64,000 nucleotides of DNA from Balanoglossus misakiensis (Eukaryota > Animalia > Hemichordata): positions 2,758,902 through 2,822,901 of the forward strand of contig CM082585.2 in NCBI GenBank assembly GCA_040954595.2, in the 5' to 3' direction. Positions 11,207 through 63,441 of this stretch are shown here, in pieces (position 1 is the stretch's first letter; each line of letters starts with the position of its first letter). The notes beneath the pieces are model-generated. The model did no database searches and was not told where the DNA came from. It saw nothing but the letters and a program-made list of their open reading frames with translations. The position numbers and the translations under genes are program-made.

Positions 11207-11584
11207 CCTGTCGTCCACAAGGAATCATTAAATAAGCAAGTGAGTAAAGTTTTTTCCTATTTTTATAGTAATACTAAAAGGAATGCCTTTGCGTTATTGC
11301 GAAACCATGTCGCAGCATTTCATATTTTATTCAGGACAAGATTGCATGACAACCGTTTCACCAGTTTTGCCTGAATACGTTACCAGTCGGTATTATGATT
11401 TATTATCATAGACATATCAATGTGTACAAAAATCATTCGTCTAGCGTTCGACGCAATCATCATTAACACAATCACAGCTCTCAGGAGAAATTGTCTAACT
11501 TCGCTGCAACTGTCTACTGTTTTCATGAACTCATAAATACCATTATCCACTTGTTCACAGGTTGCATCAGATCCCAGTCTGAAA

Positions 11585-26400: not shown

Positions 26401-29400
26401 GTGGGGTCAACCTTTGCGTCAACATTAACCAGGCCAGACAGTAACAAGGCCAGAGTGGACAGTTTCCTGCCCATTAATTTTGAGTGTTTGGTGGGGTCAA
26501 CCTTTGTGTCAACATTAACCAGGCCAGACAGTAACCAGACCAGAGTGGACAGTATTCTGCCCATTAATTTCGAGTGTTTGGTGGGGTCAACCTTTGCGTC
26601 AACATTAACCAGGCCAGACAGTAACAAGGCCAGAGTGGACAGTATCCTGCCAATTAATTTCGAGTGTTTGGTGGGGTCAACCTTTGCGTCAACATTAACC
26701 AGGCCAGACAGTAACAAGGCCAGAGTGGACAGTATCCTGCCCATCAATTTTGAGTGTTTGGTGGGGTCAACCTTTGCGTCAACATTAACCAGGCCAGACA
26801 GTAACCAGGCCAGAGTGGACAGTATCCTGCCCATCAATTTTGAGTGTTTGGTGGGGTCAACCTTTGCGTCAACATTAACCAGGCCAGACAGTAACCAGGC
26901 CAGAGTGGACAGTATTCTGCCCATTAATTTCGAGTGTGTGGTGGGGTCAACCTTTGCGTCAACATTAACCAGGCCAGACAGTAACCAGGCCAGAGTGGAC
27001 AGTATCCTGTCCATTAATTTCGAGTGTTTGGTGGGGTCAACCTTTGCGTCAACATTAACCAGGCCAGACAGTAACCAGGCCAGAGTGGACAGTATCCTGT
27101 CCATTAATTTTGAGTGCTTGGTGGGGTCAACCTTTGCGTCAACATTAACCAGGCCAGACAGTATCCTGACCAGAGTGGACAGTATCCTGTCCATTAATTT
27201 TGAGTGTCTGGTGGGGTCAACCTTTGCGTCAACATTAACCAGGCCAGACAGTATCCTGGCCAGAGTGGACAGTATCCTGTCCATTAATTTTGAGTGTCAA
27301 CATTAACCAGGCCAGACAGTATCCTGGCCAGAGTGGACAGTATTCTGCCCATTAATTTCGAGTGTTTGGTGGGGTCAACCTTTGCGTCAACATTAACCAG
27401 ACCAGACAGTAACCAGGCCAGAGTGGACAGTATTCTGCCCATTAATTTCGAGTGTTTGGTGGGGTCAACCTTTGCGTCAACATTAACCAGGCCAGACAGT
27501 ATCCTGGCCAGAGTGGACAGTATCCTGTCTATTAATTTTGAGTGTCTGGTGGGGTCAACCTTTGCGTCAACATTTACCAGACCAGACAGTATCCTGGCCA
27601 GAGTGGACAGTATCCTGTCCATTAATTTTGAGTGTCTGGTGGGGTCAACCTTGTGTCAACATTAACCAGACCAGACAGTAACCAGGCCAGAGTGGACAGT
27701 ATTCTGCCCGTTAATTTCGAGTGTTTGGTGGGGTCAACCTTTGCGTCAACATTAACCAGACCAGACAGTATCCTGGCCAGAGTGGACAGTATTCTGCCCA
27801 TTAATTTCGAGTGTTTGGTGGGGTCAACCTTTGCGTCAACATTAACCAGACCAGACAGTAACCAGGCCAGAGTGGACAGTATTCTGCCCATTAATTTCGA
27901 GTGTTTGGTGGGGTCAACCTTTGCGTCAACATTAACCAGACCAGACAGTATCCTGGCCAGAGTGGACAGTATTCTGCCCATTAATTTCGAGTGTTTGGTG
28001 GGGTCAACCTTTGCGTCAACATTAACCAGACCAGACAGTATCCTGGCCAGAGTGGACAGTATTCTGCCCATTAATTTTGAGTGTCTGGTGGGGTCAACCT
28101 GTGCGTCAACATTAACCAGGCCAGACAGTATCCTGACCAGAGTGGACAGTATCCTGTCCATTAATTTTGAGTGTCTGGTGGGGTCAACCTTTGCGTCAAC
28201 ATTAACCAGGCCAGACAGTATCCTGGCCAGAGTGGACAGTATCCTGTCCATTAATTTTGAGTGTCAACATTAACCAGGCCAGACAGTATCCTGGCCAGAG
28301 TGGACAGTATACTGTCTATTAATTTTGAGTGTCTGGTGGGGTCAACCTTTGCGTCAACATAAACCAGGCCAGACAGTATCCTGGCCAGAGTGGACAGTAT
28401 TCTGCCCATGAACTTCGAGTGTTTGGTGGGGTCAACCTTTGCGTCAACATTAACCAGGCCAGACAGTAACCAGGCCAGAGTGGACAGTATCCTGTCCATT
28501 AATTTTGAGTGTTTGGTGGGGTCAACCTTTGCGTCAACATTAACCAGGCCAGACAGTATCCTGACCAGAGTGGACAGTATCCTGTCCATTAATTTTGAGT
28601 GTCTGGTGGGGTCAACCTTTGCGTCAACATTAACCAGGCCAGACAGTATCCTGGCCAGAGTGGACAGTATCCTGTCCATTAATTTTGAGTGTCAACATTA
28701 ACCAGGCCAGACAGTATCCTGGCCAGAGTGGACAGTATCCTGTCTATTAATTTTGAGTGTCTGGTGGGGTCAACCTTGCGTCAACATTAACCAGACCAGA
28801 CAGTATCCTGGCCAGAGTGGACAATATTCTGCCCATTAATTTCGAGTGTTTGGTGGGCTCAACCTTTGCGTCAACATTAACCAGACCAGACAGTATCCTG
28901 GCCAGAGTGGACAGTATCCTGTCCATTAATTTTGAGTGTCTGGTGGGGTCAACCTTGTGTCAACATTAACCAGACCAGACAGTAACCAGGCCAGAGTGGA
29001 CAGTATTCTGCCCGTTAATTTCGAGTGTTTGATGGGGTCAACCTTTGCGTCAGCATTAACCAGGCCAGACAGTATCCTGGCCAGAGTGGACAGTATCCTG
29101 TCCATTAATTTTGAGTGTCTGGTGGGGTCAACCTTTGCGTCAACATTAACCAGGCCAGACAGTATCCTGGCTAGAGTGGACAGTATCCTGTCCATTAATT
29201 TTGAGTGTCAACATTAACCAGGCCAGACAGTATCCTGGCCAGAGTGGACAGTATACTGTCTATTAATTTTGAGTGTCTGGTGGGGTCAACCTTTGCGTCA
29301 ACATTAACCAGGCCAGACAGTATCCTGGCCAGAGTGGACAGTATTCTGCCCATGAATTTCGAGTGTTTGGTGGGGTCAACCTTTGCGTCAACATTAACTA

Positions 29401-32400
29401 GGCCTGAAAGTAACCAGGCGTAGAGTGGACAGTATTCTGCCCATGAATTTCAAGTATTTGGTGGGGTCAACCTTTGCGTCAACATTAACCAGGCCAGACA
29501 GTATCCTGGCCAGAGTGGACAGTATTCTGCCCATGAATTTCAAGTGTTTGGTGGGGTCAACCTTTGCGTCAACATTAACCAGGCCAGACAGTAACAAGGC
29601 CAGAGTGGACAGTATCCTGCCCATTAATTTCGAGTGTTTGGTTGGGGCAACCTTTGCGTCAACATTAACCAGGCCAGACAGTAACAAGGCCAGAGTGGAC
29701 AGTATCCTGCCCATTAATTTTGAGTGTTTGGTGGGGTCAACCTTTGTGTCAACATTAACCAGGCCAGACAGTAACCAGACCAGAGTGGACAGTATTCTGC
29801 CCATTAATTTCGAGTGTTTGGTGGGGTCAACCTTTTCGTCAACATTAACCAGGCCAGACAGTAACAAGGCCAGAGTGGAAAGTATCCTGCCAATTAATTT
29901 CGAGTGTTTGGTGGGGTCAACCTTTGCGTCAACATTAACCAGGCCAGACAGTATCCTGGCCAGAGTGGACAGTATCCTGCCCATTAATTTTGAGTGTCTG
30001 GTGGGGTCAACCTTTGCGTCAACATTAACCAGACCAGACAGTATCCTGGCCAGAGTGGACAGTATACTGTCTATTAATTTTGAGTGTCTGGTGGGGTCAA
30101 CCTTTGCGTCAACATTAACCAGGCCAGACAGTATCCTGGCCAGAGTGGACAGTATTCTGCCCATGAATTTCGAGTGTTTGGTGGGGTCAACCTTTGCGTC
30201 AACATTAACCAGGCCAGACAGTATCCTGGCCAGAGTGGACAGTATTCTGCCCATGAATTTTGAGTGTCTGGTGGGGTCAACCTTTGCGTCAACATTAACC
30301 AGGCCAGACAGTATCCTGGCCAGAGTGGACAGTATTCTGCCCATGAATTTCAAGTATTTGGTGGGGTCAACCTTTGCGTCAACATTAACCAGGCCAGACA
30401 GTATCCTGGCCAGAGTGGACAGTATTCTGCCCATGAATTTCAAGTGTTTGGTGGGGTCAACCTTTGCGTCAACATTAACCAGGCCAGACAGTAACAAGGC
30501 CAGAGTGGACAGTATCCTGCCCATTAATTTCGAGTGTTTTGTTGGGGCAACCTTTGCGTCAACATTAACCAGGCCAGACAGTAACAAGGCCAGAGTGGAC
30601 AGTATTCTGCCCATTAATTTCGAGTGTTTGGTGGGGTCAACCTTTGTGTCAACATTAACCAGGCCAGACAGTAACAAGGCCAGAGTGGACAGTATTCTGC
30701 CCATTAATTTCGAGTGTTTGGTGGGGTCAACCTTTGTGTCAACATTAACCAGGCCAGACAGTAACCAGACCAGAGTGGACAGTATTCTGCCCATTAATTT
30801 CGAGTGTTTGGTGGGGTCAACCTTTGCGTCAACATTAACCAGGCCAGACAGTAACAAGGCCAGAGTGGACAGTATCCTGCCAATTAATTTCGAGTGTTTG
30901 GTGGGGTCAACCTTTGCGTCAACATTAACCAGGCCAGACAGTAACCAGGCCAGAGTGGACAGTATCCTGTCCATTAATTTCGAGTGTTTGGTGGGGTCAA
31001 CCTTTGCGTCAACATTAACCAGAGCAAACAGTAACCAGACCAGAGTGGACAGTATGCTGCCCATTAATTTTGAGTGTTTGGTGGGGTCAACCTTTGCGTC
31101 AACATTAACCAGAGCACACAGTAACCAGGCAGAGTGGACAGTATCCTGTCCATTAATTTCGAGTGTTTGGTGGGCTCAACCTTTGCGTCAACATTAACCA
31201 GACCAGACAGTATCCTGGCCAGAGTGGACAGTATCCTGTCCATTAATTTTGAGTGTCTGGTGGGGTCAACCTTTGCGTCAACATTAACCAGACCAGACAG
31301 TATCCTGGCTAGAGTGGACAGTATCCTGCCCATTAATTTTGAGTGTCTGGTGGGGTCAACCTTTGCGTCAACATTAACCAGGCCAGACAGTATCCTGGCC
31401 AGAGTGGACAGTATCCTGTCCATTAATTTTGAGTGTCTGGTGGGGTCAACCTTTGCGTCAACATTAACCAGGCCAGACAGTATCCTGGCCAGAGTGGACA
31501 GTATCCTGTCCATTAATTTTGAGTGTCTGGTGGGGTCAACCTTTGCGTCAACATTAACCAGGCCAGACAGTATCCTGGCCAGAGTGGATAGTATCCTGCC
31601 CATTAATTTTGAGTGTCTGGTGGGGTCAACCTTTGCGTCAACATTAACCAGGCCAGACAGTATCCTGGCCAGAGTGGACAGTATCCTGTCCATTAATTTT
31701 GAGTGTCTGGTGGGGTCAACCTTTGCGTCAACATTAACCAGGCCAGACAGTATCCTGGCCAGAGTGGATAGTATCCTGCCCATTAATTTTGAGTGTCTGG
31801 TGGGGTCAACCTTTGCGTCAACATTAACCAGGCCAGACAGTATCCTGGCCAGAGTGGACAGTATCCTGTCCATTAATTTTGAGTGTCTGGTGGGGTCAAC
31901 CTCTGCATCAACATTAACCAGGCCAGATAGTAACCAGGCCAGAGTTGACAGTATTCTGCCCATTAATTTCGAGTGTTTGGTGGGGTCAACCTTTGCGTCA
32001 ACATTAACCAGGCCAGATAGTAACCAGGCCACAGTCGACAGTATCCTGTCCATTAATTTTGAGTGTCTGGTGGGGTCAACCTTTGCGTCAACATTAACCA
32101 GGCCAGATAGTAACCAGGCCAGAGTCGACAGTATCCTGTGCATTAATTTTGAATGTCTGGTGGGGTCAACCTTTGCGTCAACATTAACCAGGCCAGATAG
32201 TAACCAGGCCAGAGTGGACAGTATTCTGCCCATTAATTTTGAGTGTTTGGTGGACAACCTTTGCGTCAACATTAACCAGAGCACACTGTAACCAGGCCAG
32301 AGTGGACAGTGTCCTGTCCATTAATTTTGAGTGTTTGGTGGGGTCAACCTTTGCGTCAACATTAACCAGGCCAGACAGTAACCAGGCCAGAGTGGACAGT

Positions 32401-32437
32401 ATCCTGCCTATTAATTTTGAGTGATTTGTGGGTCAAT
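17405..32437. repeat. 90-bp satellite array (~15 kb, about 167 monomers)
   Basis: Monomer gagtgtttggtggggtcaacctttgcgtcaacattaaccaggccagacagtaaccaggccagagtggacagtattctgcccattaattt(c/t), with 89/91-bp, 68-bp and +7-bp variants. Confidence 0.98.
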
Positions 32438-34329: not shown

Positions 34330-34880
34330 TTCATCCCTCTGGTCACAGAAGCATCGTCTGGCGTCGTTACAAGTTTAAGTTCATCCCTCCAGTACAGTAT
34401 TAGGTGGCGGCGGCGTTACAAGTATTAAGTTCATCCCTCCAGTACAGTATTAGGTGGCGGCGGCGTTACAAGTATTAAGTTCATCCCTCCAGTACAGTAT
34501 TAGGTGGCGGCGTCGTTACAAGTATTAAGTTCATCCCTCCAGTACAGTATTAGGTGGCGGCGTCGTTACAAGTATTAAGTTCATCCCTCCAGTACAGTAT
34601 TAGGTGGCGGCGTCGTTACAAGTATTAAGTTCATCTCTCCAGTACAGTATTAGTTGGCGGCGTCGTTACAAGTATTAAGTTCATCCCTCCAGTACAGTAT
34701 TAGGTGGCGGCGTCGTTACAAGTATTAAGTTCATCCCTCCAGTACAGTATTAGGTGGCGGCGTCGTTACAAGTATTAAGTTCATCTCTCCAGTACAGTAT
34801 TAGGTGGCGGCGTCGTTACAAGTATTAAGTTCATCTCTCCAGTACAGTATTAGGTGGCGGCGTCGTTACAAATATTACAC
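34330..34880. repeat. 50-bp minisatellite, about 10 near-identical copies plus diverged flanking copies
   Basis: aagttcatccctccagtacagtattaggtggcggcgtcgttacaagtatt repeated head to tail. Confidence 0.95.
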
Positions 34881-38281: not shown

Positions 38282-41200
38282 TTAATATAAGAATCCTTTG
38301 GAATCAGTCTGCATTTTCTCGGCAGATTTTTATTGAAAATAATAGTTTTATCGACAGTCACAAGCTGAGTACAACCAGAGTTTTGATCGGATTGTTTATT
38401 TACAAAAAATATGGAAAAGTCCAAACAAGCATAAAAAATAGAAAATTTATGATATGAGCTCAAAACATGCAGGACTTTGAAGTCGTCATGCATACAAATT
38501 TATAAAGCAATTTGCCCAGTAGTTGATGAGTTTAGACCAATTTAACGTTTTTCAAGCTCATTTGCACATTTTTGGCCATGACAACTTAAACAAAATTATA
38601 TCTACAGAACAGCCTTTACACTCCAAATATTGCGGCTATAAGTTTTTGTTGTGGATGGACATAGATACAGAAGCAGCTGAATCGCATAAGGTCCCAGTGG
38701 TATACACATATATTGAATGGGGCCTACAAAGATTGACTAAATTTACAATCAATCTGACAAGTAGTTTCAAACAATTTTTGATGAAAAGTTGCAAAATTTC
38801 CCAAAAGTTTCACCAAATTTCACACCAACAGTTTACTTAGGTTTACACCCCTCGCCTGAGTAGGAACATACCTTCCAAATTTCAAAGCTATCTGACAAAA
38901 AGTTTCAGAAAAACGATTTTCGACTCGGAATGGCAAAAATTGACCAAATATTACAAATATGCAAAACTGGCAACAATTTGCGCCAAACTAACTAAGATCA
39001 CAAAATGAAGGAAAAAAATCTCCAATGAGTTGAAATGAGAAATCCATGTACACAAACATTTGTGAAATACTTCCCCTATACCCTTAATACAATTAGGTAC
39101 CCTATTCAAATAGTCATAATCAACCCACTTCTTGATCGTGGAGGACAGCACTACATAAAGGTTACCAAGTGGAGAATATTCATCCGACAAGTGATTATTA
39201 GAGGTGTGCATAATAAACCAACGGTGGATTGCTGCCCCAATAAAATTGAGAGGGTGAATTAACTATTTGATTAAAAACAGTAACATATAAACTGGCTATG
39301 AAGCATGTATACAACAAGTTGTGGTTACCGAAAAAAGGTACTTGACGGGGCCGCAAGGGTCTTTAACATAGGGTCCAAGGTCTTCTCCCCCTCCTGCACA
39401 GCCTAATGATGACCATTTAAGACAGTCCACCTGTGAATCAAATATATGTGCATGTTTATAAGTAACCAATCACAAACTTGCATTATGTCATACTAATAAG
39501 TCAAAATATGCAGAACATGGTATAATGTAGGGTCAAGGCAGTGTTGTGACAATGCATAACAATAGAATACTTAGCAGATAAATCTGTGAAACAGCAATTT
39601 TGAAACTCCATTTACATCTGACTAAGTAATAGTACTGCAGAGTATAGAAGCTCCATATGGGTATTCTCTTACATGGCAATCAGGTGACAAATGATATTTA
39701 TGTGTAAACAACAAAAACATGCACACAGACTTAATAACACTGTACCTAAAACATACCCACCCATGGACGGCAAACAAATAATTAAATTCAAGGCGCCTAT
39801 ATACAATTATAGCTATGGGTAATTCTGCCAATTCTAAATGTGTCCAAACTGAATTTATGTCCAGTTCATTCACCTCATCATAATCACATTACAGGAAATC
39901 AATAATGCCCTAAAAAAGCAAATATAGATGAACTCATGCTTACCAGAAAGTAGTCTTAACCAAGCTTCAGCGCACAGGAGAACGAGAAACCCTGGACCAG
40001 TTGAAATTGCGACAATCATGGCTTCCATCTGTGAATGAAATATGCATAGCAGTTAGTAACAAATCATAAACCTGTAGGTCGCAATATATGGGATGTGATA
40101 TAAGGGAGTGTTGAGAATATACTTCCCAAGGAATTGAGGTGGCTGTAGGATTTCCAGGGGGCCATCGATTTTTTTACATGAGAAATTGGGGGGGGGGGGC
40201 ACATAACACCAGACTTTTAGGGATGACTATGAAAAAATAGCGTCAAGGACACTGTGGTCCCATTTGAGGATTACACGGAATTAGTTATAGACAAGAATAA
40301 AAATCACATGCGACACTTGCAAGCAGATATGACCTAACCATATATAAATATGAAAATGTAAAAAAATTAACAAGGACCATGCCCAATAGACTGTCATGTG
40401 TCATGGCAGTCTTACAAGTGATGCAAGAAAAATTTATGTTTGACCAAAAATTGTGTGTAGAAACACACATGACAAGCAACTTCTTACAGTCAGCCCTTGG
40501 ACAGACTGACAGACATTCAATAGCTAATGGTCTCTGTAACAGCTGGCCTATTAAGTTATGTAAACATGTAGTGTAAACAGTCTCGGGGTACAAATACCTT
40601 GTAAACAGTAACTTTCAATGCAACTGGACATGAGTTTAGAAGATTTGCTAACCAAAATCAATAATTTGCAAAAAACTCGCTAAATATTTGTTCAAAAGTG
40701 GCAAAAACACATACAAGCAAATATCACCAAAATTGTTCAAAATCCTAACTTCAATCACCACAAGGAACATGCCTGCCAAAAAGCGAATCAATCAAAGCAA
40801 TCTGACAAGCGGTTTCAGAGGGGAAAAATAACAAAAAAATTATCATCAAAATTATAAATATGTAATTTTTTGCAATAATTTGAACAAAACCATGGTTGCT
40901 CAGACAACCTATAAGAAGCTTCATACTAAATTTCAAAGAAGTAGGCCGATCACTTTCAGAAATGAAGATTTTTTACCAATAATGTTGAAAAATTAATATA
41001 AACAAATGCATCAAAAATAGAAAATCAATATTAGCTCTAAACATACAGGACTGTTTGAGGTAGACATAAGGTACCTGCATACCAATTTCCAAATTAATCT
41101 GATTAGTAGTTGGTGAGTTTGAGTTTTGACCCATTTCAAATTTTTCCACCTAATTTGCATATTTTTTAAAGTCAATGACAACTCCATTTGAAGAAACTCC

Positions 41201-44807: not shown

Positions 44808-47013
44808 TAGTGGAGCGGCCAAACCCTAATTTTCATAGCGATTGTGCATTTTGTGATAAAAGCACCAAACTTGGCTCAGATGTGTGTTAATGTGTACTAA
44901 ATAAATTCAGATAGGGAGCCACTAAATATCTGTTGATGAGTTTCCATGGCAACCAATTTTTCAAAATGGCCACCAATACAGATAATTTCACCCACCAAAT
45001 AACATCTGCAAACACCAAAATAAATTTAGATTACTATATTTGATACAAGGAACTGTGGAAAGAATGATTTGCAAAGATATTATGGTTACTAAACTACTTA
45101 TAGGGGTAAGTAAGTTATCAAAACACAATTTAAAGGCACAACTTTTAATCCCTTTCGGATTAATAGGTGCTCCTCTAGAAGTCAAACCATACTGTCTATG
45201 GTCAAACATTAGGCTAATTGCGATATTTAACTTGCAGTACGTAAATTACACATATGAATCACAACAGTTTACCACCTTAGCTAATGATAATCATATAAAC
45301 AGATCACCGATATATTCGAATTGCACACGGATGTGGGCTTGGCTTACTCGTGACTGGTAAAATTTCCTTATCAACTTGATAGGAGAGTCCACTGCCCGAA
45401 ATAGACGTTGATCCAAACTGAGTCCGCGGTCGTCGCGTTTATTGGTCGACAGACATAGGGCCTCAAACGCAATGCAATCTAAATGGACCCCGGGTAACGA
45501 ACCACGCGGCTTTGTTTCGACCACAATCGCCACCGCAGCGTTGACAACGTTTTTTCGGGGCGTTAATGTTTGTCAAAATGCCATAGGAAATTAAAGAAAC
45601 TTAAGTCAAATTGCTGAAACGTTAATAATCGACCATATGTCTTGATACTTTAGATCATGTATCAGTTCCACTCCAGCAATTTTGGCGACTGTTAACAGAG
45701 TTGACCAAAAGATAAATGGTGTCTATGATTCCAAACTCATAAAAATTACACCGGAGGACACAACATTATTTTATTTGTCGAGAATAGTGTCCATCATGCC
45801 ATAAATATTGTCAAAAATGTGTGTTAATTATAGAAACCCAACTAAATATACAAGCAGTTGGCCTTTAGATTGGTAAATGGAAAAACAGGTCTTATTGCAA
45901 TTTTCTGGGATTAGGTGCCCCAAGGCTCCCAACAAGTCACTTGGAATGTACTTCCATTCTAATATCTCAATGTGTAAAGATCTGACTTTGCAAGAGATAT
46001 TACGGAAAACTTCATTTCATTTAATAGCATGAAGTAAGCGAAATCTTACTCTTTACAGAAAAGCTGTGATCCTGAAGACTTTTGGTGTTTTGAAGCTTAT
46101 TTTCACTTTATCATTTTATTCTTTTGGGGGTTCACAAATACACAAAATAACATGTCAAAATAGAACTGCTGACTATCATCAAGGTGTGATTAAAATTATC
46201 GATAACATGAGCAATACAAAGCACTTCAAGCGACTTCATCAAAACGCTTTCCGAAGGACAAGTATTGGATGAAAAGTTTGAAACAGATTTTGATTTTGAT
46301 TCCTAACATCTATCTATGTACATGCACCCTAGACATAGTTAGTTTCTATAGTAACTTTAACAAACCAATCGACTGTCATGATACTGGATTTCTGCCATCA
46401 TTTTATGGGGAAGTGATTCTTTATCTGCATGAATCATTTGATGAAGATAAAATAGAAAAGCTGGATTCTGCACTGATTCAAACTGGTCAGATCAATTTAT
46501 AAGGTTGAGAAACAAGATGCCGTTTTTTCCTGGGTTGACTAAATTTGGAATTTTGTTCATCAAAGATATTTTTATGGGGAAAATAACGAATCAACTGAGC
46601 TTTACTTGTTAAACTTTTATCACAAAATGCCCAAATGTTACGAAAATTGTGTTTATGCCAGGCCACTATTATAATATATATATGGTTATACAGTGTTTTA
46701 AATAAGTTTGTTGTAACCGGGGTTATTACCAAACTTGAATTTGTTTAGCGACTGAATCTCGATCCTGTATTTACCCCTATAACTAGTTTAGTGATGATAT
46801 ATATTTTGAAAATTTGAGCAGTTTCTTGTTTCAAATATTGTAATATGAATTTATTGTGGTGTTTTATAATTGTTATTTTGCGGGTGAGATTATCTGTATT
46901 GGCGGCCATTTCGCAAAAATGAAAAAAATGATTGCCATGGAAACTCATCAACAGATATTGTGGCTCGCTATCTGAATTTGTTTAGTACACATTAACGCAC
47001 ATCTGAGCCAAGT
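44808..47013. mobile_element. Second Academ-like non-autonomous element (TAGTGGAGCGGC family), right end truncated, nested in 44273-48539
   Basis: Closely similar to 53087-55120; long imperfect TIR (44870-45010 vs 46870-47012). Confidence 0.78.
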
Positions 47014-48535: not shown

Positions 48536-51500
48536 ACTATTAGCCCACAACATATAGAATTGTGTAAGGTTAACGTAAGGTACATGCATACCAATTTTCA
48601 ATTTTGAAAGCAATTTGCCCAGTAGTTGTCGAGTTTCAGAGTTGACGAATTAGACACTTTCCCAGTTAATTTGCATATTTTGGCAATGACAACTTCATTT
48701 AGACAAACTCCCATCTACCCCTGTGCCTGCATCTCCACACTAAATATCAAGGTTTCCAAGTGTTTGATGTTGACGGACATACAAACATCCATACATACAT
48801 CAGGTGCAACTGATCCAATAAGGTCCCATGGTATAAATACAAATACCAAATGGGACCTAACAATTCTGATAAAATGCCTACATAGCTAGTGTAAAAACAC
48901 TTGTACCTTCAACGCCCTTGGACAACACATTTTTGTAACTTCCCCAGATCAATGGCTAATATGACTTTCCAAAGGCGACTAAAATTTGGGGGTGGGTGGG
49001 TGGGGGGGGGGGCCTGATGCAAATTCTGATACATGTACTTCATGATTTAGAGATATGGTGAAAATCCTGTCAACCAAATTACAGGGAAATCAGATTTTCC
49101 ATGTAAAATCATATCACCCAAAAATGTCAAAAGTGTCGAAAATAATTTTGAAACAAAAAGTCTACTCAAAATCATACCAAAATTTAAAGTTTAATGCAGT
49201 TGGGCAAGTAATTTGAGAATGAGGAAATTTACAAAATAATTTATAAATAATTTACAAATGCCGCACACAAACTTACAATTACTACCATGGTACCAGCAGA
49301 GACATTAGCATCGAGCAATCCCCAAGATATACATGACATGGTCTAATTACAAATATTGAATATGTAAAATAAGTACACTTCCAGTCTTTCAGTACAGTCA
49401 GCTGCTTGTGAACAATTTGCAGGTAGGTATTTCATCAAATTTACAGACCAAGTCATGCCTATACAATTCTCCCCTGAAATACGTTTTAAGCTACCCTAAG
49501 TGAGTGATGAAAATCTCATATTGTCGACAATTTCAAGATGGCCGATTTTTGCCATGTTAAAGAAATGGGAGTTCATAAGCTAAAGTGATAATGGGTCATT
49601 CTTGAACTTTTTAACAGAAAAAATAACAAAATGTGAAAAAAGTTTAATGAGTTTAATATGCTAACTACAGAGAACGACATGTTTGACCAAAGCATGAAAT
49701 ACAAAAAATGTATCATTTCTTCCATCTCTTACTACAGTGGGTTGTGGACTTTTCGCCCAGAATGCAATGTGATTTGACCCCCTAGCGCATAGTGAAAACC
49801 TATTTAAGGCAGCCAGAATGTTCTGCACTGTATGACGGGAAACATTTGTAAAGTCATGGCTAGCGTGGGCTGGTAAGTTTATGGGACTCTCCATGATAAC
49901 CGATTGTGGCTTGCCACCACCATAATTTTGAAAGGGCGACTTCACTGTTTGATGGGAAAAGGTAGCATTTACAAACAAGCTATGGAGCATGTATACAGCA
50001 AGTTGTGCTTACCGGAAAGCGGTCTTGGAAAAGGCCTAGGTATTCTCTTCCTCCTCCGGCATACGTTGAAATGCTGTGTTTAAGACTGTGAATCAAATAT
50101 ATGCAAATATTAATTAGTAACCAATCAACTTTGTTTTAGAATTATGTGGGCCATACTAATTAGTGAAAATATGCAAAACATGGTATAATGTACGGTCAGA
50201 CTGTGCTGCGATAATGTACAACAGTGGAATACGTCGATCTTAAAACTCCATTTACATCAGTACTGCAGTAAAGTGGTCCACATGGGTATATACCCCAAAC
50301 ATTGCAATTAGGTGACAACTGAAACTGACATGATATCAGATTCTGTAAATGACAGAAGGTGTACACGCACTTTGACATCTATGTAACACTGTACAATGAT
50401 TTCTTTGTTTGTTGTGAAAATGAAACTTGCATTTGATCCATCTCACTTTTCATACAACTGATTAGCATAAGAATGTACATTGTTGGCAATTATAAAACAT
50501 TTATTTAAGTATAGAAAAGTAAGCCTTAAAATTTAAACTTTAAATATCAGTATACTAAAATGTTTCAAACGTGGCTGTCAGTATATCTCATGGCGTGGTG
50601 GCGGAAGTAGATGTTGTTACCAGGGAAGACATATTGAACACAGACAAGCCCAATAGTCGCTTGGTGATTTTTTATCTTTATAAAGATTCTCAAAACTTTT
50701 TGTGCATTTAGTAGCTTTGAGCAAGTTTCTGGTACTGATCAGATTTCCGAATTCAGGACTGCGCTTCTCTGGCTTTGGTCACCATCAGCCAATGTGATCT
50801 TACGCACACATTTTTGAAAAAAAAATCCAGCCTGTTTGTGTCATGATTTATATTTTTCTTTGCGGCCTAAGGTATTGTTTTATTTCACTCTAAACAACAT
50901 TACTTTCCTTCATGTGTCTATACATAATAATAGATCTCTTAGCCAGTTTGATTAAGCATGGTGTTGGACTAGCACACTTTCAGCCAAAGTTACGGTATCT
51001 CCCTGTGTATTGATATGGGAGTAATTTCTAGCTATATGGTTAAGGAAATGCATCCAAATTTAATTTATGCATCACATGAAGATTTGAACTTGACCATTTA
51101 ATTCATGTCATCACGATCATATCACAGGCAATCGAGGCCAGAATTCGAAGGGAAAAAAAAAGTATTGATAACTGGAATGTGTAAATTAGTTCGTAGACAT
51201 ACAAATTGCTTCCTATTGCTTCGGTTGCAACGCCCGATAAAAGCAAATATATAGCAAGTCATGCTTACCATTGAGCGGTCTTAAACTCGCCCCAGACGAG
51301 GAAGAGAATCCTGAGTTGAAATGCAGGCAATCTCAGGCAGCATCTGAGAATCAAATAGACCTAGAAGTTAGTAACCAGTCATAGTAGCTCTAAGTTGGAT
51401 GTAAAAGTCTAAGTTGGGTGTACCAACTCACCTTGTTAACAGTAACTTTCAAAGAAACTGGGCAATTGGTTCAAGAGAAGATTTGCTATCCAAAAACAAA

Positions 51501-53086: not shown

Positions 53087-55492
53087 TAGTGGAGCGGCCA
53101 AACCCTAATTTTCATAGCGATTGTGCATTTTGTGATAAAAGCACCAAACTTGGCTCAGATGTGTGTTAATGTGAAGTAAACAAATTCAGATAGCGAGCCA
53201 CTAAATATCTGTTGATGAGTTTCCATGGCAACCGATTTTTCAAAATGGCCACCAATACAGATAATTTCACCCACCAAATAACAACTGTAAACACCAAAAT
53301 AAATTTAGATTACTATATTTGATACAAGGAACTGTGTAAAGAATGATTTGCAAAGATATTATGGTTACTAAACTACTTATAGGGGTAAGTAAGTTATCAA
53401 AACACAATTTAAAGGCGCAACTTTTAATCCCTTTGTTCTCGGATTAATAGGTGCTCCTCTAGAAGTGAAACCATACTGTCTATCGTCAAACATTAGGCTA
53501 ATTGCGATATTTAACTTGCAGTACATAAATTACACGTCATATGAATCACAACAGTTTACCACCTTAGCCAATGATAATCATATTAACAGATCACCGATAT
53601 ATTCGAATTGCACACGGATGCGGGCTTAGCTTACTCGTGACTGGTAAAATTTCCTTATCAACTGAGAGTCCACTGCCCGAAATAGACGTTGATCCAAACT
53701 GAGTCCACGGTCGTCGCGTTTATTGGTCGACAGACATACACATAGGGCCTCAAACGCAATGCAATCTAAATGGACCCCGGGTAACAAACCATGCGAAAAT
53801 GTTGGCTTTGTTTCGACCACAATCGCGACCGCAGCGTTGACAACGTTTTTTCGGGGCGTTGATGTTTGTCAAAATGCCATAGGAAATTAAAGAAACTTAA
53901 GTCGAATTGCTGAAACGTTAATAATCGACCATATGTCTTGATACTTTAGATCATGTATCAGTTCGACTCCAGCAATTTTGGCGACTGTTAACAGAGTTGA
54001 CCAAAAGATAAATGGCGTCTATGATTCCAAACTCATAAAAATTACACCGGGGGACACAACATTATTTTATTTGTCGAGAATAGTGTTCATCATGCCATAA
54101 ATATTGTCAAAAATGTGTGTTAATTATAAAAACCCAACTAAAGATACAAGCAGTTGGCCTTTAGATTGTCATGATACTGGCTTTCTGCCATCATTTTATG
54201 GGGAAGTGATTCTTTATTTGCATGAATCATTTGATGAAGATAAAATAGAAAAGCTAGATTCTGCACTGATTCAAACTGGTCAGATCAATTTATAAGGTTG
54301 AGAAACGAGATGCCGTTTTTTCCTGGGTTGCCTAAATTTGGAATTTTGTTCATGAAAGATATTTTTATGGGGAAAATAACGAATCAACTGAGGTTTACCT
54401 GTTAAACTTTTATCACAAAATGCCCAAATTTTATGAAAATGTTGTTTATGCCAGGTCACTATTATAATATATCTATGGTTATACAGTGTTTTAACTAAGT
54501 TTCTTGTAATCGTGGTTATTACCAAACTTGAATTTCTTTAGCGACTGAATCTCGATCCTGTATTTACCCCTTTAACTAGTTTAGTGATGATAAAAATTTT
54601 AGAAATTACTCTTTGAGCAGTTTCTTGTTTCAAATTTTGTAATATGAATTTACTTTGGAGTTTTATAATTGTTATTTTGTGGGTGAGATTATCTGTATTG
54701 GCGGCCATTTTGAAAAAATGAAAAAATAGTTGCCATGGAAACTCATCAACAGATATTGTGGCTCACTATCTGAATTTGTTTAGTTAAGCAATAAAACACC
54801 CCCAGCCATGGTATATCACGAGATTTTGACCAGTTCACGACATATACGCACGAGCGATAGCGAGTGCGTATATGGAGTTGAACTGGTCAAAATCGAGTGG
54901 TATACCATGGCTGGGGGTGTTTTATTGCTATTATATTATGCCAGTATATTGAAACTTTGCATAAAACATTTTAAAAAGGCATTTTCTTTAACTATGATAT
55001 ATGACTGTGGTATATGGCTAATATATCACGGTCACGTGTCGTGTCTCGACCAATCAAATAGCGTGATTTACACCATCAATATACTGGTATAATATAATAC
55101 ACATTAATGCACATAGCCAAGTTTGGTGCTTGTATCACAAAATGCACAATCGATTTGTTATGCCGCTGTACTGTAGACGTTAAACTGTGTTTTATCCTTT
55201 ATTCTATATTCAGAACTATTTCGGTGACCACAAATACCCTTTCTATAGTTTCTGGTTTCAAATATCCTAATCTGAAAGTACCTTGGTGTTCTTTAGTCGT
55301 TATTTTGTGTGAAAGATTAATGTAGTGGCGGCCATTTTGAAAAATGGTTGCCATGGCTACCCGTTAACAGATATTAAGTGGCTCGCTATCTGAATTTGCT
55401 TAGTACACAGTAACACACATCTGAGCCAAGTTTGGTGTTTTTATCACAAAATGCACAATCGCGATGAAAATTGGGGTTTGGCCGCTCCACTA
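53087..55492. mobile_element. Academ-like non-autonomous element with both ends, TSD ATA
   Basis: TAGTGGAGCGGCCAAAACCCTAATTTTCAT...ATGAAAATTGGGGTTTGGCCGCTCCACTA; ATA at 53084-53086 and 55493-55495; empty site near 48960. Confidence 0.85.
54785..55098. mobile_element. Small hairpin-ended insertion, resembling non-autonomous Crypton-type elements
   Basis: Interrupts tttagt/acacatt, which is contiguous at 46981-46993; contains ~52-bp inverted arms (54785-54836 and 54880-54930); no clear TSD. Family assignment is tentative. Confidence 0.65.
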
Positions 55493-57726
55493 ATACTACA
55501 TGCCAAGGGTGACTAGAATTTTTTTTTTTGGGGGGGGGGGAGGGGGCGATGCAATTCTGATACATGTACTTCATGATTTAGAGATCTGGTGAAAATCCTG
55601 TCAACCGAATTACAGGGAAATCAGATTTTCCATGGAAAATCATTTTACCAAAAAATTTCAAAAAGTGTAGAAAATAAATTTGAAACAGAAAGCCTACTCA
55701 AAATCATACCAAAATTTAAATTTTAATGCAGTTGGGCAAGCAATTTGAGAATGAAGAAACTTAGAAATAATTTATAAATTGAAAATAATTTACAAATGCT
55801 GCACACAAACTTACAATCACTACCATATTACTGTACAAGTTAAAAGGACATTGTACCAGCAGAGACATTGCGATCGAGCAATCCCCAAGATATACATGAC
55901 ATGGTCTAATTACAAATATTGAATATGTAAAATAAGTACACAACACTTCCAGTCTTTCAGTACAGTCAGCTGCTTGTGAACAATTTGCAGGTAGGTATTT
56001 CATCAAATTTACAGACCAAGTCATGCCTATACAATTCTCCCCTGAAATACGTTTTAAGCTACCCTAAGTGAGTGATGAAAATCTCATACGGTCGACAATT
56101 TCAAGATGGCCGATTTTTGCCATGTTAAAGAAATGGGAGTTCATATGCTAAAGTGATGATGGGTCATTCTGGAACTTTTTAACAGAAAAAATAACAAAAT
56201 GTGAAAAACAGTTTAATGGGTTTAATATGCTAACTACAGAGACAGACATGTTTGACCAAAGGAAGTCATGAAATACAGTAAACATATCATTTCTTCTATC
56301 TCTTACTACAGTTGGTTGTGAACTTTTCGCCCAGAATGCAATGGGATTTGACCCCCTAGCGCAAAGTGAAAACCTATTTAAAGCAGCCAGAATTTTCTGC
56401 ATAGTATGACGGAAACATTTGTAAAGTCATGGGTAGCATGGGTTGGCAGGTTTATGGGACCCTGCTCATGTTCCCTCGAATAAAACATGATACATGTTTG
56501 GTGACTTATTATTCTGTATTTTGTCATATTTTCAGATAAATCCCTATCAATCAGTCATATTTGTTCGGCCTTGCTATACAGCGAAATATAAATCTTGTTG
56601 ACTGAAATTGTTGAGGATAGTGTTACATAAAGGTTACCCATTGGAAAATATTAAAATGATTATTAGTGGTGTCCAACTCTTCATGATAACCAGTTGTGGC
56701 TTGCCACCACCATAATTTTGAAAGGGCGACTTCACTGTTTGATGGGAAAAGGTAGCATTTACAAACAAGCTATGGAGCATGTATACAGCAAGTTGTGCTT
56801 ACCGGAAAGCGGTCTTGGATCAGGCCTAGGTATTCTCTCCCTCCTCCGGCATACGTTGAAATGCTGTGTTTAAGACTGTGAATCAAATATATGCATATTA
56901 ATAAGTAACCAATCAACCTTGCTTTAGAATTATGTGGGCAATACTAAATAGTGAAAATATGCAAAACATGGTATAATATAGGGTCAGAAAAAATATCCAG
57001 CCTGTTTGTGTCATGATTTACATTTTTATTTCTGACCTAAATTATTGTTTTTGTCACTTTAAACAACATTACTCATTACTGTCCTTCATAAGTCTAATAT
57101 GATAATAGACTTCTTAGCCAGTTTGATTAAGCATGGTGTTGGACTAGCGCATGTTCAGCCAAAGCTACAGTATCTCCCTGTGTATTGGTATGGGAGTAAT
57201 TTTAGCTATATGTTTAAAGAAATGCATCCAAATGTATTCTATGCTCCATGTGAAGATTTGAACTTGTGAGTTGTCCATTTAATTCATGTCATCACTACCA
57301 TATCACAGGCAATCAAGGCCAGAATTCGAAGGGGAAAAAACAAGTATTGAAAGCTGGAATGTGTAAATTAGTTCGTAGACATACATTGCTTCCTATTGTA
57401 CCGTTTGCAACGCGTGATAAAAGCAAATATATAGCAAGTCATGCTTACCATTGAGCGGTCTTAAACTCGCCTCGGACGAGGAAGAGAATCCCGAGTTGAA
57501 ACGCAGACATTTTCAGGCAGCATCTGTGAATCAAATAGACATAGAAGTTAGTAACCAGTCATAGTAGCTCTGCGTGGCAGGGCTGCGTGTTAACAGCTAT
57601 GCCATAGCTGACACTGGTAGCTTATAACAGTCTCGATGGTGCCGAAAATCTCCCCAACAACAAAACTAATTCTGGTCAGTTTATTCGCTATCGCTTTGCC
57701 TTAAAAGTTATACTGTAGTGTGTTAC

Positions 57727-58149
57727 CACAGGGGGCTCTCCCTCCGCGATTTTATTGTTTGTTTGTTTGTTGTTGTTGTTGTTGTTGTTGTTGATGATTG
57801 GCATTATAAACAAATACATATTTCTTTATTAATAAATATGGTTTGTTGACATGTAAGTGTTAGGGAAAATTCAACGGTTAGCATTAGTGTTGGCACTTTT
57901 TTCGATCCACGGCCCCGGGCATCACTAAGCCACGAAGAGAGGGTGATGCTGGCCGTGGATCGCAATAATGCCAACACTAATACTAACAGTTGAATATACC
58001 ATAACCTGTCAAATATACCCTAATAACCTAACCCTTACATGTCAACAAACCATATTTATTGACAAAGAAATATGTATTTGTTTATAATGCCAATCAACAA
58101 CAACAACAAACAAACACACAATAAAATTGCGGAGGGAGAGCCCCCTGTG
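57727..58149. mobile_element. Fold-back MITE with CA...TG ends and 7-bp TSD (P-element-like)
   Basis: CACAGGGGGCTCTCCCTCCGC...GCGGAGGGAGAGCCCCCTGTG; GTGTTAC at 57720-57726 and 58150-58156; nearly the whole element is an inverted repeat. Confidence 0.85.
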
Positions 58150-61100
58150 GTGTTACGGTACCACCTGCCCCACAATGACAAAGCTGACTCGAGGCCACGA
58201 ACGACGTACAATTTACTCGCACGGTGTAAAACAACGCATGAATTCCATGCGACTGTGAGTTTACTGTTCGGCGCTGTAACGCTTCCCAAAGTCAGAATTT
58301 CGATGTTGGGAAGACACTGTCGCCCTACCACTACCAGTTTTTGCAAGAAGGAGTGTACATGTACTTGTAAAATAACATTAAATGCCATGCTTACCAGAGA
58401 AACGACTTCATCAAGCATGGAGGCGACCGGGACCTCCATGCTTGATGAACGTCGAAGCTGCAATGATTTTTCAAATGCAATGGTCAGCGGTACGAGAACG
58501 AGGCAGCACCTGCTCGTCAATTATGCAAATTAGTTACTACTCAATCAGAATCTTGCTTTCGCATTCTAATTAGTCAAAGTATGCAGTGCAACGTTTGTGT
58601 GCGGGTGGAGAATGCGCCTCGCCAACTGATGAATTCTCTGTCACGGCGTTCTTTGGAAGTGCGATTATGTAACCGATTATCTCATTAGGGACATAGATAA
58701 TATATTTTGTCTTCTTCAATTTGTTTGTACTACGAAAACAATTGCGAAACGAATAGCAAGCGCTTACGCTATGAAACGTAAATAAATATCAGTCATGGCC
58801 ATGTAGAAACGGAACGTCAATCCGCATTTGTCAAAAAATAATAGAAAAGACAAAGAAGCTGAGGGGAATGACCTCTCCGTTCTGACCTATCTGGGGAAGG
58901 CCTATTGCAATACGCAATATGTCAGATCATGCTACCATCCGCCATTCTGATTGGACGAGAGCTCAATCCATCGATACGAAAGTACTCAATAGAGCACTGC
59001 TGAAACTGGCCCTGAACTAATCGCATGCAACAGGGAAAACGCGACCTTTCAAATCAAATAAATACAAAAAATACAGCCAATGAATTTACGGCCGGCCGGT
59101 TTATTTCTTAACTGCTCTATAGGAATTGTTGTCACTGCCATGGACCACTTCGCGGATAGCATAACACAGGGTGTTGTGGGATAGTTTGCGTTCTGAGCGC
59201 GTGCGTTAGCCATGCAGTAGACGCTATGTTGAACGCAAATTATACCATCATGCATTGCAGATACCCTATCCGCGTAGTGGTCTATGCACGATGCATGTCT
59301 TGTCAGTGCGCACTCGACAAATTGGACCGTTTCTATAAAAAAATATGAACTGTGACTTTTGATTTTATTGAGAAATGTCTCTCGAATTAAACCATGTAAC
59401 GTAAATCAAGGAAATGTATTCTGCTAAAGTTGCTCCTGACGGGTTCGCTGAAACATTGTGTTATTGGTAAAATACGTCAAGTGTAAAATATTGAGTTACC
59501 TAATATGATAAAATATCAGATTTATGTGTTTAATCAAGATAGGCCTCTCTTCATATGTTTCATTTATTTGGTTTGAATAAAAGTTATCTGATTCAGTTTC
59601 ATGAAGTATACACGGATTAAATGTTTATCCACTGTAGTGCCACTGAAATGGCTTTCACGTTTGAGACTTCGGGCGGTAATCTTATATTTACTTTCTTCAT
59701 TTCTATTGGAGTAGACTACACCGGGGTCGACCTAAAATATCTATAAGCAATGCGCAAAGGGAGTATTTCAGCCGTGATGACCGGACGATGTCGGACAAAG
59801 TCTACAACTTAATACACGATCACCTCCAATTTGCATATGTCCATAAATGGCTAAACTTGCGTATCCTAGTGTTCTAAAGAACAAATGGTGGCGCTCTTAT
59901 TGTCGCGTGTGCCACCTCCTGAATATTTGTGATTGGCTGTATCTCAATTTGCCATGGTAACTGTAGCTAAATTTGCATAGGTTACCGTATACCTTTAAGG
60001 CACGTCAAGCGTATGTCCTTGTTGGGCTGTCTGACAGGAACGAATCGAGACCCACCGCACAGTCACGCAATAATGAAATCCACATCGCCAAAAACGATGT
60101 TTCACTAGACTCGGGTACATGCAACTATCTCATGCCATTTACAGAATTGAACACCCCAGGCAATGTTACGTGTTGCTCCATGACTGTTGCTCCATGACCA
60201 ACCAAACAGCAAACAACAAACTCATGTCCAAACCAATGACGGTCGCAACTCATTGCATTAAACAATATAGATGGGGATCCCAAAGAATAATTCAAATATA
60301 TTTGCAGAATTGCCACGCAAGTCGAGCATATTGTCCAAATTTAAGCACTCTGCAACTGAAACATAAAACCCAAGCTTTTTACAATACAGGAATTAAAAAT
60401 TCTGATTGAATTAATGCCAACATAAAACGAAAAAAGACAACTCACAAAATGTATATGTAGTGTTTCATGTAGTGTTTTGATCTCAAGAAGACATGAAAAA
60501 ATCGTCGGGGGAAAAGCAGGTGAGAACACCACCTCATTTTTGGGATATGAAATAAAAGTCTATTTTACGGAGACACCTGGTAAAAAGTCCACCCTAGTCT
60601 CAATTTTCCAGACCCCTCTGGGATAGTCGAGTAGTCCATCCCCATGAAACTGCATATTTTAAAATAGCCAAAATGAGTCAATGGGGCATTTTTTCATCCT
60701 ACCTCAACCTTGCTAAGAGTTTCCGTGCCAGTCACCTGCAAAAATTAAATTTACCACGGACAAATTGAAATACAGCCAATCGAAAAAAGTGCGCCACCAC
60801 ATGGTCATTTGAAGACTTTGATGCTCTCTTCTGGCCGTAACCGCATGTGATCCGGAATAAAATTGAGCCTTGATCGCGTTTTTTATTTTATTTTCACCAC
60901 CAACGAAAATCTACGACGGCCCAACCGCAGATTATTGCTGCTCCATACAACAACCGGCTTATACTGTACATAAGTTTTGTGTTCTGGTGGCATTTGCGGG
61001 TCTGAGACGTCATTTCTAGAAGGCCCTATTCGTTTTATACCAATAACTTTTACCACCCATGCTGGATTTTTTACGTTTTCTTTGACGACGCTTGACCCTT

Positions 61101-61420: not shown

Positions 61421-63200
61421 CATGGAAAAACCCCAGGAAACTAAGGGGTACAACAGATTTCCTCCACAATTTACTGGGGTACGTCCATGGAAAAAACAAT
61501 CACCAGGAAAATAAAAAATCCTCCGGCCCCACCCTGGTAGTTAAATCTGAACAGTCCCTAACTTTTGTTTGTTTGTTTGCTTGTTTATTTGTCTGTCTGT
61601 TTGTGTATTCTATATTATGTTATATGAAGCTTCTGCTACATTTTGCATTTCCTTTTGCATAAACAATGACTAAACCGACTGGAGCGCGTTTGGGCGCAGG
61701 ATAGATTTAAGAGTTAATCCATCTGTGTTTACCGGCTAAAACCGTTCGATTTTTGCAACAAGTGAGACCGTAGTAGTAATCCGAAGGCCAGTCAGTGCAT
61801 GTTTGCATGACTGGCGTGTAGTGATACCTACCACAAAATGGTATCGCCCAAATAATGTTTGCCGGAATTTATAAGCCTGGCGCTCTCCTAACAAGTCGTC
61901 ATGTTCGCCCTCGTAGTCATGCTGCCAGTCGGGGAAAATGACGTACTTCATGTAAAAGTTTATAAAAAATAAACCAAATTTCACTGCCATGTATCCCAAA
62001 ACAATTTATGTGACAGATTTTTAAAAAGAACACTAACTTCGGCTAAGGAATGTCAAGTCATAGCTCCGCGTTCAGGTCTGTGTGTTCCCGACGCACCACA
62101 GCCCTGCATAAGGCCCCATAGACAAAACTGGTGCGCCCTCGGTCCGGACCCGGACGCCCGACCGCAGCTTTTTCTGTCGAAATTCGTTTTTATCGAAGCA
62201 AAATCCTTTCCCTTACTACTTCAACCGACCCCAAATATGATGCGTTTAACTTCTTCTAACGTCCATGTAACGCCGGGAACACACAGACCTGCACGCAGAG
62301 CTAGTCAAGTCATGGAAAAACCCCAGGAAACTAAGGGGTACAACAGATTTCCTCCACAATTTACTGGGGTACGTCCATGGAAAAAACAATCACCAGGAAA
62401 ATAAAAAATCCTCCGGCCCCACCCTGGAAGTTAAATCTGAACAGTCCCTAACTTTTGTTTGTTTGTTTGCTTGTTTATTTGTCTGTCTGTTTGTGTATTC
62501 TATATTATGTTATATGAAGCTTCTGCTACATTTTGCATTTCCTTTTGCATAAACAATGACTAAACCGACTGGAGCGCGTTTGGGCGCAGGATAGATTTAA
62601 GAGTTAATCCATCTGTGTTTACCGGCTAAAACCGTTCGATTTTTGCAACAAGTGAGACCGTAGTAGTAATCCGAAGGCCAGTCAGTGCATGTTTGCATGA
62701 CTGGCGTGTAGTGATACCTACCACAAAATGGTATCGCCCAAATAATGTTTGCCGGAATTTATAAGCCTGGCGCTCTCCTAACAAGTCGTCATGTTCGCCC
62801 TCGTAGTCATGCTGCCAGTCGGGGAAAATGACGTACTTCATGTAAAAGTTTATAAAAAATAAACCAAATTTCACTGCCATGTATCCCAAAACAATTTATG
62901 TGACAGATTTTTAAAAAGAACACTAACTTCGGCTAAGGAATGTCAAGTCATAGCTCCGCGTTCAGGTCTGTGTGTTCCCGACGCACCACAGCCCTGCATA
63001 AGGCCCCATAGACAAAACTGGTGCGCCCTCGGTCCGGACCCGGACGCCCGACCGCAGCTTTTTCTGTCGAAATTCGTTTTTATCGAAGCAAAATCCTTTC
63101 CCTTACTACTTCAACCGACCCCAAATATGATGCGTTTAACTTCTTCTAACGTCCCCGTAACGCCGGGAACACACAGACCTGCACGCAGAGCTAGTCAAGT
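61421..63200. repeat. 890-bp near-perfect tandem duplication
   Basis: 61421-62310 repeated at 62311-63200 with only a few differences seen (ctggtag/ctggaag; gtccatg/gtccccg). Confidence 0.97.
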
Positions 63201-63441
63201 CAGTGCACTGTGCAGTCGGTCGGTACACTCTGCTGGTGTATACAAACGATCGTGGCGACAGAATCTCTCCCTGGGACGGCCTTACACAAATTTAATCGAT
63301 TGTCTAACAATTTTACTGCGACTTGTTGTCACGTCTTATACATTTCGTTGACCGGTGGAATATAGAGGTTCAGTCGTCACGCTGAACTGGCTCGAAACCA
63401 TTCCCCACGCTGATTCGACTCTCGCGCCCGGGATATATGTC

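Follow-up and report, generated by a model that had tools for sequence, protein, structure and literature searches.

Small-RNA precursors whose hairpin arms lie in different exons are known from plants, where splicing takes the intron out of the loop of the miR444 family and miRtop14 precursors and where, in tomato, an unspliceable form of the precursor yielded almost no mature miRNA (PMC11706861). In animals, the engineered inc-miRs of C. elegans indicate that an intron within a miRNA hairpin is compatible with processing (PMC12219410). In the literature searched, mostly titles and abstracts of openly available papers, this engineered case was the only animal one found and no natural animal intron-split precursor was encountered; natural examples are documented in plants (miR444, miRtop14), and any novelty for animals is limited to that literature. 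The "spliced miRNA" of 10.1101/125997 was discarded as a precedent, the passage referring to mirtrons, and in PMC4307256 the term is confined to the reference list. Three further systems share parts of this anatomy. The Drosophila hairpin RNAs (hpRNAs) hp-CG4068 and hp-tHMG come from spliced transcripts, with tandem hairpins on one transcript, turn over fast and were born by local duplication of gene pieces (PMC10317233). The SOLE of oskar is a short stem-loop built from 18 nt of the upstream exon and 10 nt of the next (PMC4509934). Where mutually exclusive exons are governed by docking sites and selectors, competing pairings follow from the tandem duplication of exons with their stem-loop arms (PMC6071210).

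Here we describe a locus with seven paralogous cassettes, conserved splice signals, complementarity between its B and A cassettes and a better alignment of the two when the core of one is inverted. Our tentative preference, still short of an even chance, is that it is a spliced tandem hairpin-RNA gene that would yield intron-split small-RNA precursors and that was possibly derived from a small peptide gene.

An array of exon-like cassettes and its predicted transcript

All results were drawn from the sequence of a single 64-kb window (the whole stretch of DNA that was analysed, 64,000 nucleotides), in which splicing was predicted from its signals. A splice-site matrix and a profile HMM identified seven exon-like cassettes, all on the minus strand and paralogous to one another (C, B1, A1, B2, A2, B3 and A3); across the window both recovered these seven, with no further cassette below an E-value of 0.28. 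A 29-nt exon-like candidate (35084-35056), which does not align to the cassettes, was left out. Exon C (58395..58509, 115 nt) is a paralogue of B and A and holds a hairpin of its own. B1 (57449..57523, 75 nt) carries the 5' arms of a split hairpin and is separated by a predicted GT-AG intron of 573 nt (56876..57448) from A1 (56803..56875, 73 nt). B2 (51269..51343) and A2 (50013..50085), 1183 nt of intron apart, are recent tandem duplicates of B1 and A1, as the B exons are identical at 68 of 75 positions (91%), the A exons at 70 of 73 (96%) and the introns at 91%. The third unit, formed by B3 (39944..40028, 85 nt), an intron of 513 nt and A3 (39329..39430, 102 nt), has diverged. Compared with units 1 and 2, identity is 80-90% in the 30-45 nt adjoining the exons, about 74% in the B-A intron and 63-67% in the B exons; for the A exons it is 53-55% when few gaps are allowed and 77-79% when 7-8 are introduced.

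Every cassette has a donor made of an exonic G followed by GTAA[G/C]CA, a YAG acceptor and a branch-point-like stretch, and across the seven these signals are better kept than the exon bodies. A perfect TACTAAC occurs five times on the minus strand, three of them at -29 of the B acceptors. The earlier note had argued that a stem kept at the junctions supports the splice sites; the sites are well supported, the support coming from these conserved flanks and not from the stem. It is very improbable that the cassettes are untranscribed or unspliced relics of a repeat or mobile element. The repeat-rich window would suit such an origin, but in all seven cassettes one strand retains branch point, acceptor and donor while the exon bodies diverge, and outside the tandem array of 90-bp units GGTAAGC is found six times on the minus strand against once on the plus strand, although these copies are not independent.

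Upstream of C, a candidate first exon (E1, 58768..58960, minus strand, its 5' end not fixed) was predicted from a donor at 58768, an open ATG at 58802 and a CpG-rich stretch with CCAAT boxes. The CpG observed/expected ratio is 0.95-1.18 at 58.0-60.0 kb compared with 0.43-0.65 at 56.0-57.5 kb, and the E1 donor is one of nine donor-like sites on the minus strand between 32.5 and 64 kb. It is plausible that the CpG stretch, the CCAAT boxes and the donor represent the promoter and first exon; transcription would start in the CpG-rich stretch near 59 kb and splicing would follow the order E1-C-B1-A1-B2-A2-B3-A3.

The introns hold other features. A 618-bp stretch of the unit 2 intron (50200-50818), partly common to unit 3, is absent from unit 1, pointing to a deletion in the latter. 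An intronic stretch located 46-110 nt upstream of the A acceptors (56921-56985, 50131-50197 and 39476-39536, minus strand; also about 58560-58586) shows 86% identity when units 2 and 3 are compared; it is partly common to exon C, unstructured and endowed with extra ACTWAY motifs, and is a possible splicing regulatory element. An intronic snoRNA, as in a snoRNA host gene, was rejected, as Rfam gave no match and none of the four conserved pre-acceptor stretches showed excess folding relative to shuffles (z between +0.4 and +1.4). Over the 64 kb, Rfam gave no match at the gathering score; five weak matches at E<=5 lie within 34-60 kb, none on the cassettes. Metagenome scans with two flank patterns returned 0 and 1 match, and the sole locus, with nothing exon-like after the motif, was dropped.

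The surroundings, with a GC content of 33-48%, were also inspected. A 15-kb tandem array of a 90-bp unit (17290-32436, about 164 copies with higher-order variants), open as 30-residue repeats on both strands and broken by 91-, 97- and 68-bp steps, is probably satellite DNA, and its Pfam matches were set aside as repeat artefacts. Fragments of LTR-retrotransposon pol with RT/RNase H domains (PF17919, PF17917) lie in pieces at 3155-6655; among their best 120 matches, the two that carry an organism name are from a sea cucumber and a mussel, and the genome is therefore likely that of an invertebrate animal. The C-B1 intron harbours a 427-bp imperfect palindrome that is MITE-like (57725-58151). At 61421-63202, a near-perfect (99.7%) 891-bp tandem duplication includes a 243-bp element bearing terminal inverted repeats, whose repeat end is similar to 57565-57591, a stretch immediately 5' of the B1 branch point. 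Downstream of A1, an insertion of about 2.4 kb with long terminal inverted repeats (53087-55492; partial copies at 44808-46986) is likely a DNA transposon, of which a 143-bp palindrome (54787-54929), matched weakly by the Rfam family mir-6095 (41.6 bits against a gathering score of 100), is probably a part. A 50-bp tandem repeat (34360-34877, 10.4 copies) is preceded by acceptor-like sites and does not align to the cassettes. Two open frames of about 130 codons (11537-11932, plus strand; 13950-14342, minus strand) gave no significant Pfam family.

Hairpins across the predicted splice junctions

When B1 (57523-57449, minus strand) is joined to A1 (56875-56803), a perfect 9-bp stem with an 8-nt loop is formed. 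The apical portion of B1 (57449..57466) provides the 5' arm (57466-57458), the loop and a closing G, and the 3' arm is made of this final G and the first 8 nt of A1 (56875-56868). The B2/A2 junction (51343-51269 with 50085-50013) gives the identical 9-bp stem with an 8-nt loop, and the B3/A3 junction (40028-39944 with 39430-39329) a 7-bp stem with a 16-nt loop, all three reading as the earlier note had written them. The junction lies inside the 3' arm in the first two units and in the loop in B3/A3. Judged from 40,000 random window pieces, the chance per junction is 0.0009 for a stem of at least 9 bp and 0.017 for at least 7 bp; because unit 2 was recently duplicated from unit 1, the independent cases are two, not three. 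The seven shared apical pairs are letter-identical across all units, conserved without covariation, and in ungapped comparisons the apical arms are identical at 13 of 13 positions between units and the unpaired exon blocks of units 1 and 3 at 30 of 71.

The apical stem is only the tip of a larger feature, so that a description of this stem alone, as first given, leaves out the lower stem of 20-27 bp, exon C and the inversion origin, which carry most of the meaning. In the lower stem, the pyrimidine-rich arm of B (57473..57492 in B1) pairs with the purine-rich arm of A (56848-56828 in A1, which also has a 4-bp side hairpin). Units 1 and 2 consist of about 20 bp, a 6x19-nt internal loop and 9 bp, and unit 3 of about 27, 3-5 and 7 bp. 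Exon C folds on its own into a hairpin (58403..58454) of 22 bp with one bulge and a 7-nt loop, with 5 bp more beyond a 2x10 loop. The longest ungapped helix comprises 18-21 pairs with at most 2 mismatches. One duplex of at least 20 bp is found for C alone and for each B-A pair, and each cassette or cassette pair would therefore be predicted to give one duplex of small-RNA length.

Compared with shuffles, the cognate spliced B-A pairs fold at z -3.1 to -3.4 (3 of 3), single B or A exons without excess folding (z -0.8 to +2.2) and exon C at z -5.9, a value equalled by none of 200 shuffles. Non-cognate splices gave z -3.8 for B3 with A1 and +0.5 for B1 with A3. In terms of duplex energy, B1 pairs equally with A3 (-46.4) and A1 (-45.8), and B3:A3, the strongest duplex at -65.5 kcal/mol, exceeds its non-cognate pairs by 15-19 kcal/mol. 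Over the full length of the predicted transcript, pairing of A1 with B2 and of B1 with A2 is possible as well, and the apical stems stay (p 1.0, 0.99 and 0.73). Regarding strand, when unit 3 is aligned in a strand-neutral way, its predicted strand shows 11 G-U pairs versus 2 A.C mismatches (9:1 and 11:3 if the gap costs are altered), and unit 3 folds at -64.8 on that strand versus -49.2 on the opposite one. Unit 1 is without such bias (5 G-U versus 6 A.C; pooled P 0.08-0.29), and units 1, 2 and C fold equally well on the plus strand. A circular B-A RNA was rejected, as it folds worse than the linear form in all three units.

It had also been proposed that splicing acts as the switch that completes the hairpin. 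In equilibrium folding, the pairing probability of the apical stem in spliced and unspliced RNA was 0.99 and 0.67 for unit 1, 0.97 and 0.24 for unit 2 and 0.73 and 0.15 for unit 3, whereas that of the lower stem was unchanged (0.85-0.91 spliced versus 0.84-0.89 unspliced). In unspliced unit 1, the MFE and centroid structures already hold the entire 9-bp stem. It should be noted that the final base of the intron is also a G that can substitute for the exonic one, and therefore the 9-bp stem can form without splicing. The idea of a switch is thus upheld in part, for the size of the loop and, in units 2 and 3, for the apical stem, but not for the lower stem or the 9-bp stem of unit 1. In these models, overall pairing would not be gated by splicing; its certain effect would be on the loop, reduced from 0.5-1.2 kb to 8-16 nt.

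A hairpin assembled at an exon junction might also remain uncut and, as a SOLE-like structured RNA, serve to localise or stabilise the transcript through recognition by a dsRNA-binding protein acting with the exon junction complex. We regard this as improbable. The junction geometry of units 1 and 2 (18 + 8 nt) does match the oskar SOLE, and a second junction-closed stem is predicted at C/B1 (5 bp; p 0.93 spliced versus 0.0 unspliced), though stems of 5 bp are common by chance. The geometry of unit 3 differs (16 + 14 nt), however, and neither the 20-27-bp lower stems nor hairpin C would be explained; moreover, SOLE is present as one copy in a coding mRNA.

Origin and maintenance of the complementarity

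B and A share flanks in direct orientation and have cores that are inverted with respect to each other. When B was aligned to the reverse complement of A, 5, 7 and 0 of 3000 shuffles were as good in the three units, versus 167, 276 and 2613 in direct orientation. Inversion of the core of B raised the B-to-A alignment score from 112 to 143.5 in unit 1 and from 92.5 to 127 in unit 3, these scores being the best of many breakpoints, and the best breakpoints differing between the units. A looks like a copy of B with an inverted core, and one duplication plus inversion can therefore create both stems. Since a single DNA event can do so, complementarity is by itself no evidence of function. The extra 5' bases of A3 align with the start of B and C, and the longer loop of unit 3 may thus be ancestral.

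These observations bear on a neutral explanation, which we consider unlikely but serious: after duplication of an exon with short self-complementary ends, the copy would have had its core inverted, and two duplications of the B-A unit would have followed, the stems being remnants in a non-coding or dying gene. The gain in alignment score upon inversion fits this course of events, as do the overall identity of B to the reverse complement of A (39/58 and 45/61), close to the 74-77% of the introns, and the apical arms devoid of covariation. We simulated neutral decay from a perfect inverted copy in 600 runs at each of six settings. At intron rates, comparable junction stems were kept in 6-17% of runs (P 0.06-0.17), those of 9 and 7 bp in 6-14%; the helix alone survived in 14-40%, and both stems did so in 3-7% (P 0.03-0.07). 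At the faster exon rate, comparable junction stems were kept in 1-3% of runs, those of 9 and 7 bp in about 1%, and both stems in 0.3-0.5% (P 0.003-0.005). The simulation favours neutrality in that it presumes a perfect inversion just before the units split, and the splice flanks conserved in seven of seven cassettes, the G-U bias of unit 3 and the changes in the core stem further argue against pure decay.

Between units 1 and 2, the three changes in this core stem all keep pairing. Between units 1 and 3, an ungapped core of 18 columns has 10 unchanged, 2 changed on both sides, 3 with one-sided changes that keep pairing and 3 broken in one unit; 5 of the 8 changed columns thus keep pairing in both units. 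Among the outer predicted pairs, 4 of 5 changes break pairing. The two double changes are register-dependent, and in five automatic alignments the unit-specific columns numbered 1-3, 0 or 1, compared with 3-9 that were arm-specific. The excess of cognate pairing (D = -14.2 and -20.0 kcal/mol) has a neutral P of 0.07-0.14 for unit 1 and 0.02-0.05 for unit 2. Taken together, these comparisons suggest selection to keep the stems at a borderline level. The selection on the structure of the spliced RNA that the earlier note had read from the conserved stem is suggested but not established, such stems being retained by neutral decay in a minority of the simulated runs.

Possible products of the locus and comparison with known systems

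In the reading that we tentatively prefer, an exon duplication followed by inversion of the core, perhaps in a gene for a small secreted peptide, would have generated interrupted hairpins of a predicted 30-40 bp whose two arms lie in neighbouring predicted exons. With the loop shrunk by splicing, RNase III enzymes, presumably Microprocessor and Dicer, would cut the hairpins into small silencing RNAs, and the inverted A arms would have their natural targets among relatives of the parent peptide gene. The fuller version is rather doubtful: one exon cassette of a peptide gene would have been duplicated and inverted repeatedly to give a natural animal cluster of intron-split precursors, with every spliced exon pair making one hairpin, splicing deciding on processing and the inverted exons silencing the parent family. 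The 6x19-nt internal loop of units 1 and 2 is unlike canonical pri-miRNAs, the duplexes are short for hpRNAs, and reading-frame coincidences at the cassettes favour a coding role. As for possible targets, matches to the cassette exons elsewhere in the window do not exceed 12 nt.

According to the coding alternative, which we find quite unlikely, exon 1 would be joined to C, to B1 + A1 or to B2 + A2 to encode small peptides, and pairing of B and A in the pre-mRNA would form an RNA bridge that unites the B donor with the A acceptor and couples the pair. The ATG of exon 1 delivers the only open frame of C, B1, A1, B2 and A2, and C, B1 + A1, B2 + A2 and B3 + A3 all measure 1 mod 3; the chance that C and B1 + A1 are both open is 0.02 for the given frame and 0.07 for any common frame. 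Exon 1 with C encodes a hydrophobic, signal-like N-terminus (11-residue hydropathy 2.94, reached by 0.8% of open shuffles), a path chosen after several had been viewed. Both stems form across the intron in silico, A1 being able to pair with B1 or B2. Exons that diverge faster than their introns are known from toxin and defence-peptide genes, a pattern that this locus matches. The frame and phase expected of alternative cassettes are found in C, B1 + A1 and B2 + A2 but not in B3 + A3, as B3 has two stops in the exon-1 frame although unit 3 pairs best; furthermore, no convincing shared downstream exon was found (four weak phase-0 candidates), pN/pS is an uninformative 0.57 on 10 changes, and exon 1 is itself a guess. 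The path through all cassettes is closed by a stop in B1 that follows 70 codons; of the 127 splice paths, 20 are open, the longest encoding 95 aa. None of the four exon peptides has a Pfam family, and the C peptide, extended by a few read-through codons, has no protein relative among 219 candidates, which is weak evidence. The frame coincidences reflect either a functioning peptide gene with alternative cassettes or, in our opinion with greater likelihood, what is left of the gene that gave rise to the hairpins. Should the coding alternative hold, exon pairs coupled by pairing of the exon bodies would likewise be unusual.

If the small-RNA reading is true, the choice of splicing would be tied directly to small-RNA output, and exon duplication with core inversion would be a simple route for the birth of silencing hairpins. 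If confirmed, even one locus would imply a missed class, as miRNA finders that fold contiguous genomic windows cannot see such genes.

Canonical animal miRNAs have a stem of about 35 bp without large internal loops, and hpRNAs a duplex long enough for several phased siRNAs. Here, unit 3 comes nearest to the former with its about 27 + 3-5 + 7 bp, no described family is matched by the cassettes in Rfam, and a longest ungapped helix of 18-21 pairs falls short of the latter; the locus was therefore assigned to neither family. As in miR444 and miRtop14, the arms of all three units lie in different predicted exons with a GT-AG intron in the loop. The differences are an animal-like genome, three tandem split hairpins accompanied by one unsplit paralogue and a large internal loop. 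In silico, the lower stem forms here without splicing. The inc-miRs are an engineered construct (Zhang, Maniar, Fire 2011), and the present locus is natural. With the Drosophila hpRNAs, the likeness is one of anatomy only: inverted-repeat arms from local duplication stand in tandem on one predicted spliced transcript, and alternative pairing registers between neighbours are possible, but every arm here consists of an entire short exon, and the duplexes reach just 20-27 bp. Duplicated exons carrying stem arms with competing pairings recall the docking-site/selector systems, although the pairing elements are here exon bodies and not intronic sites, and mutual exclusion is hypothetical. The stem-loop made of an exon end and the start of the next recalls the oskar SOLE, a single element in a coding mRNA; here it is repeated, forms part of a longer hairpin and, to judge from the unspliced apical probabilities, depends on splicing to an extent that varies with the unit, being able to form before it. 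By analogy, the locus would work most like the plant intron-split miRNAs, while it is organised like the Drosophila hpRNAs and its junction geometry resembles that of the oskar SOLE.
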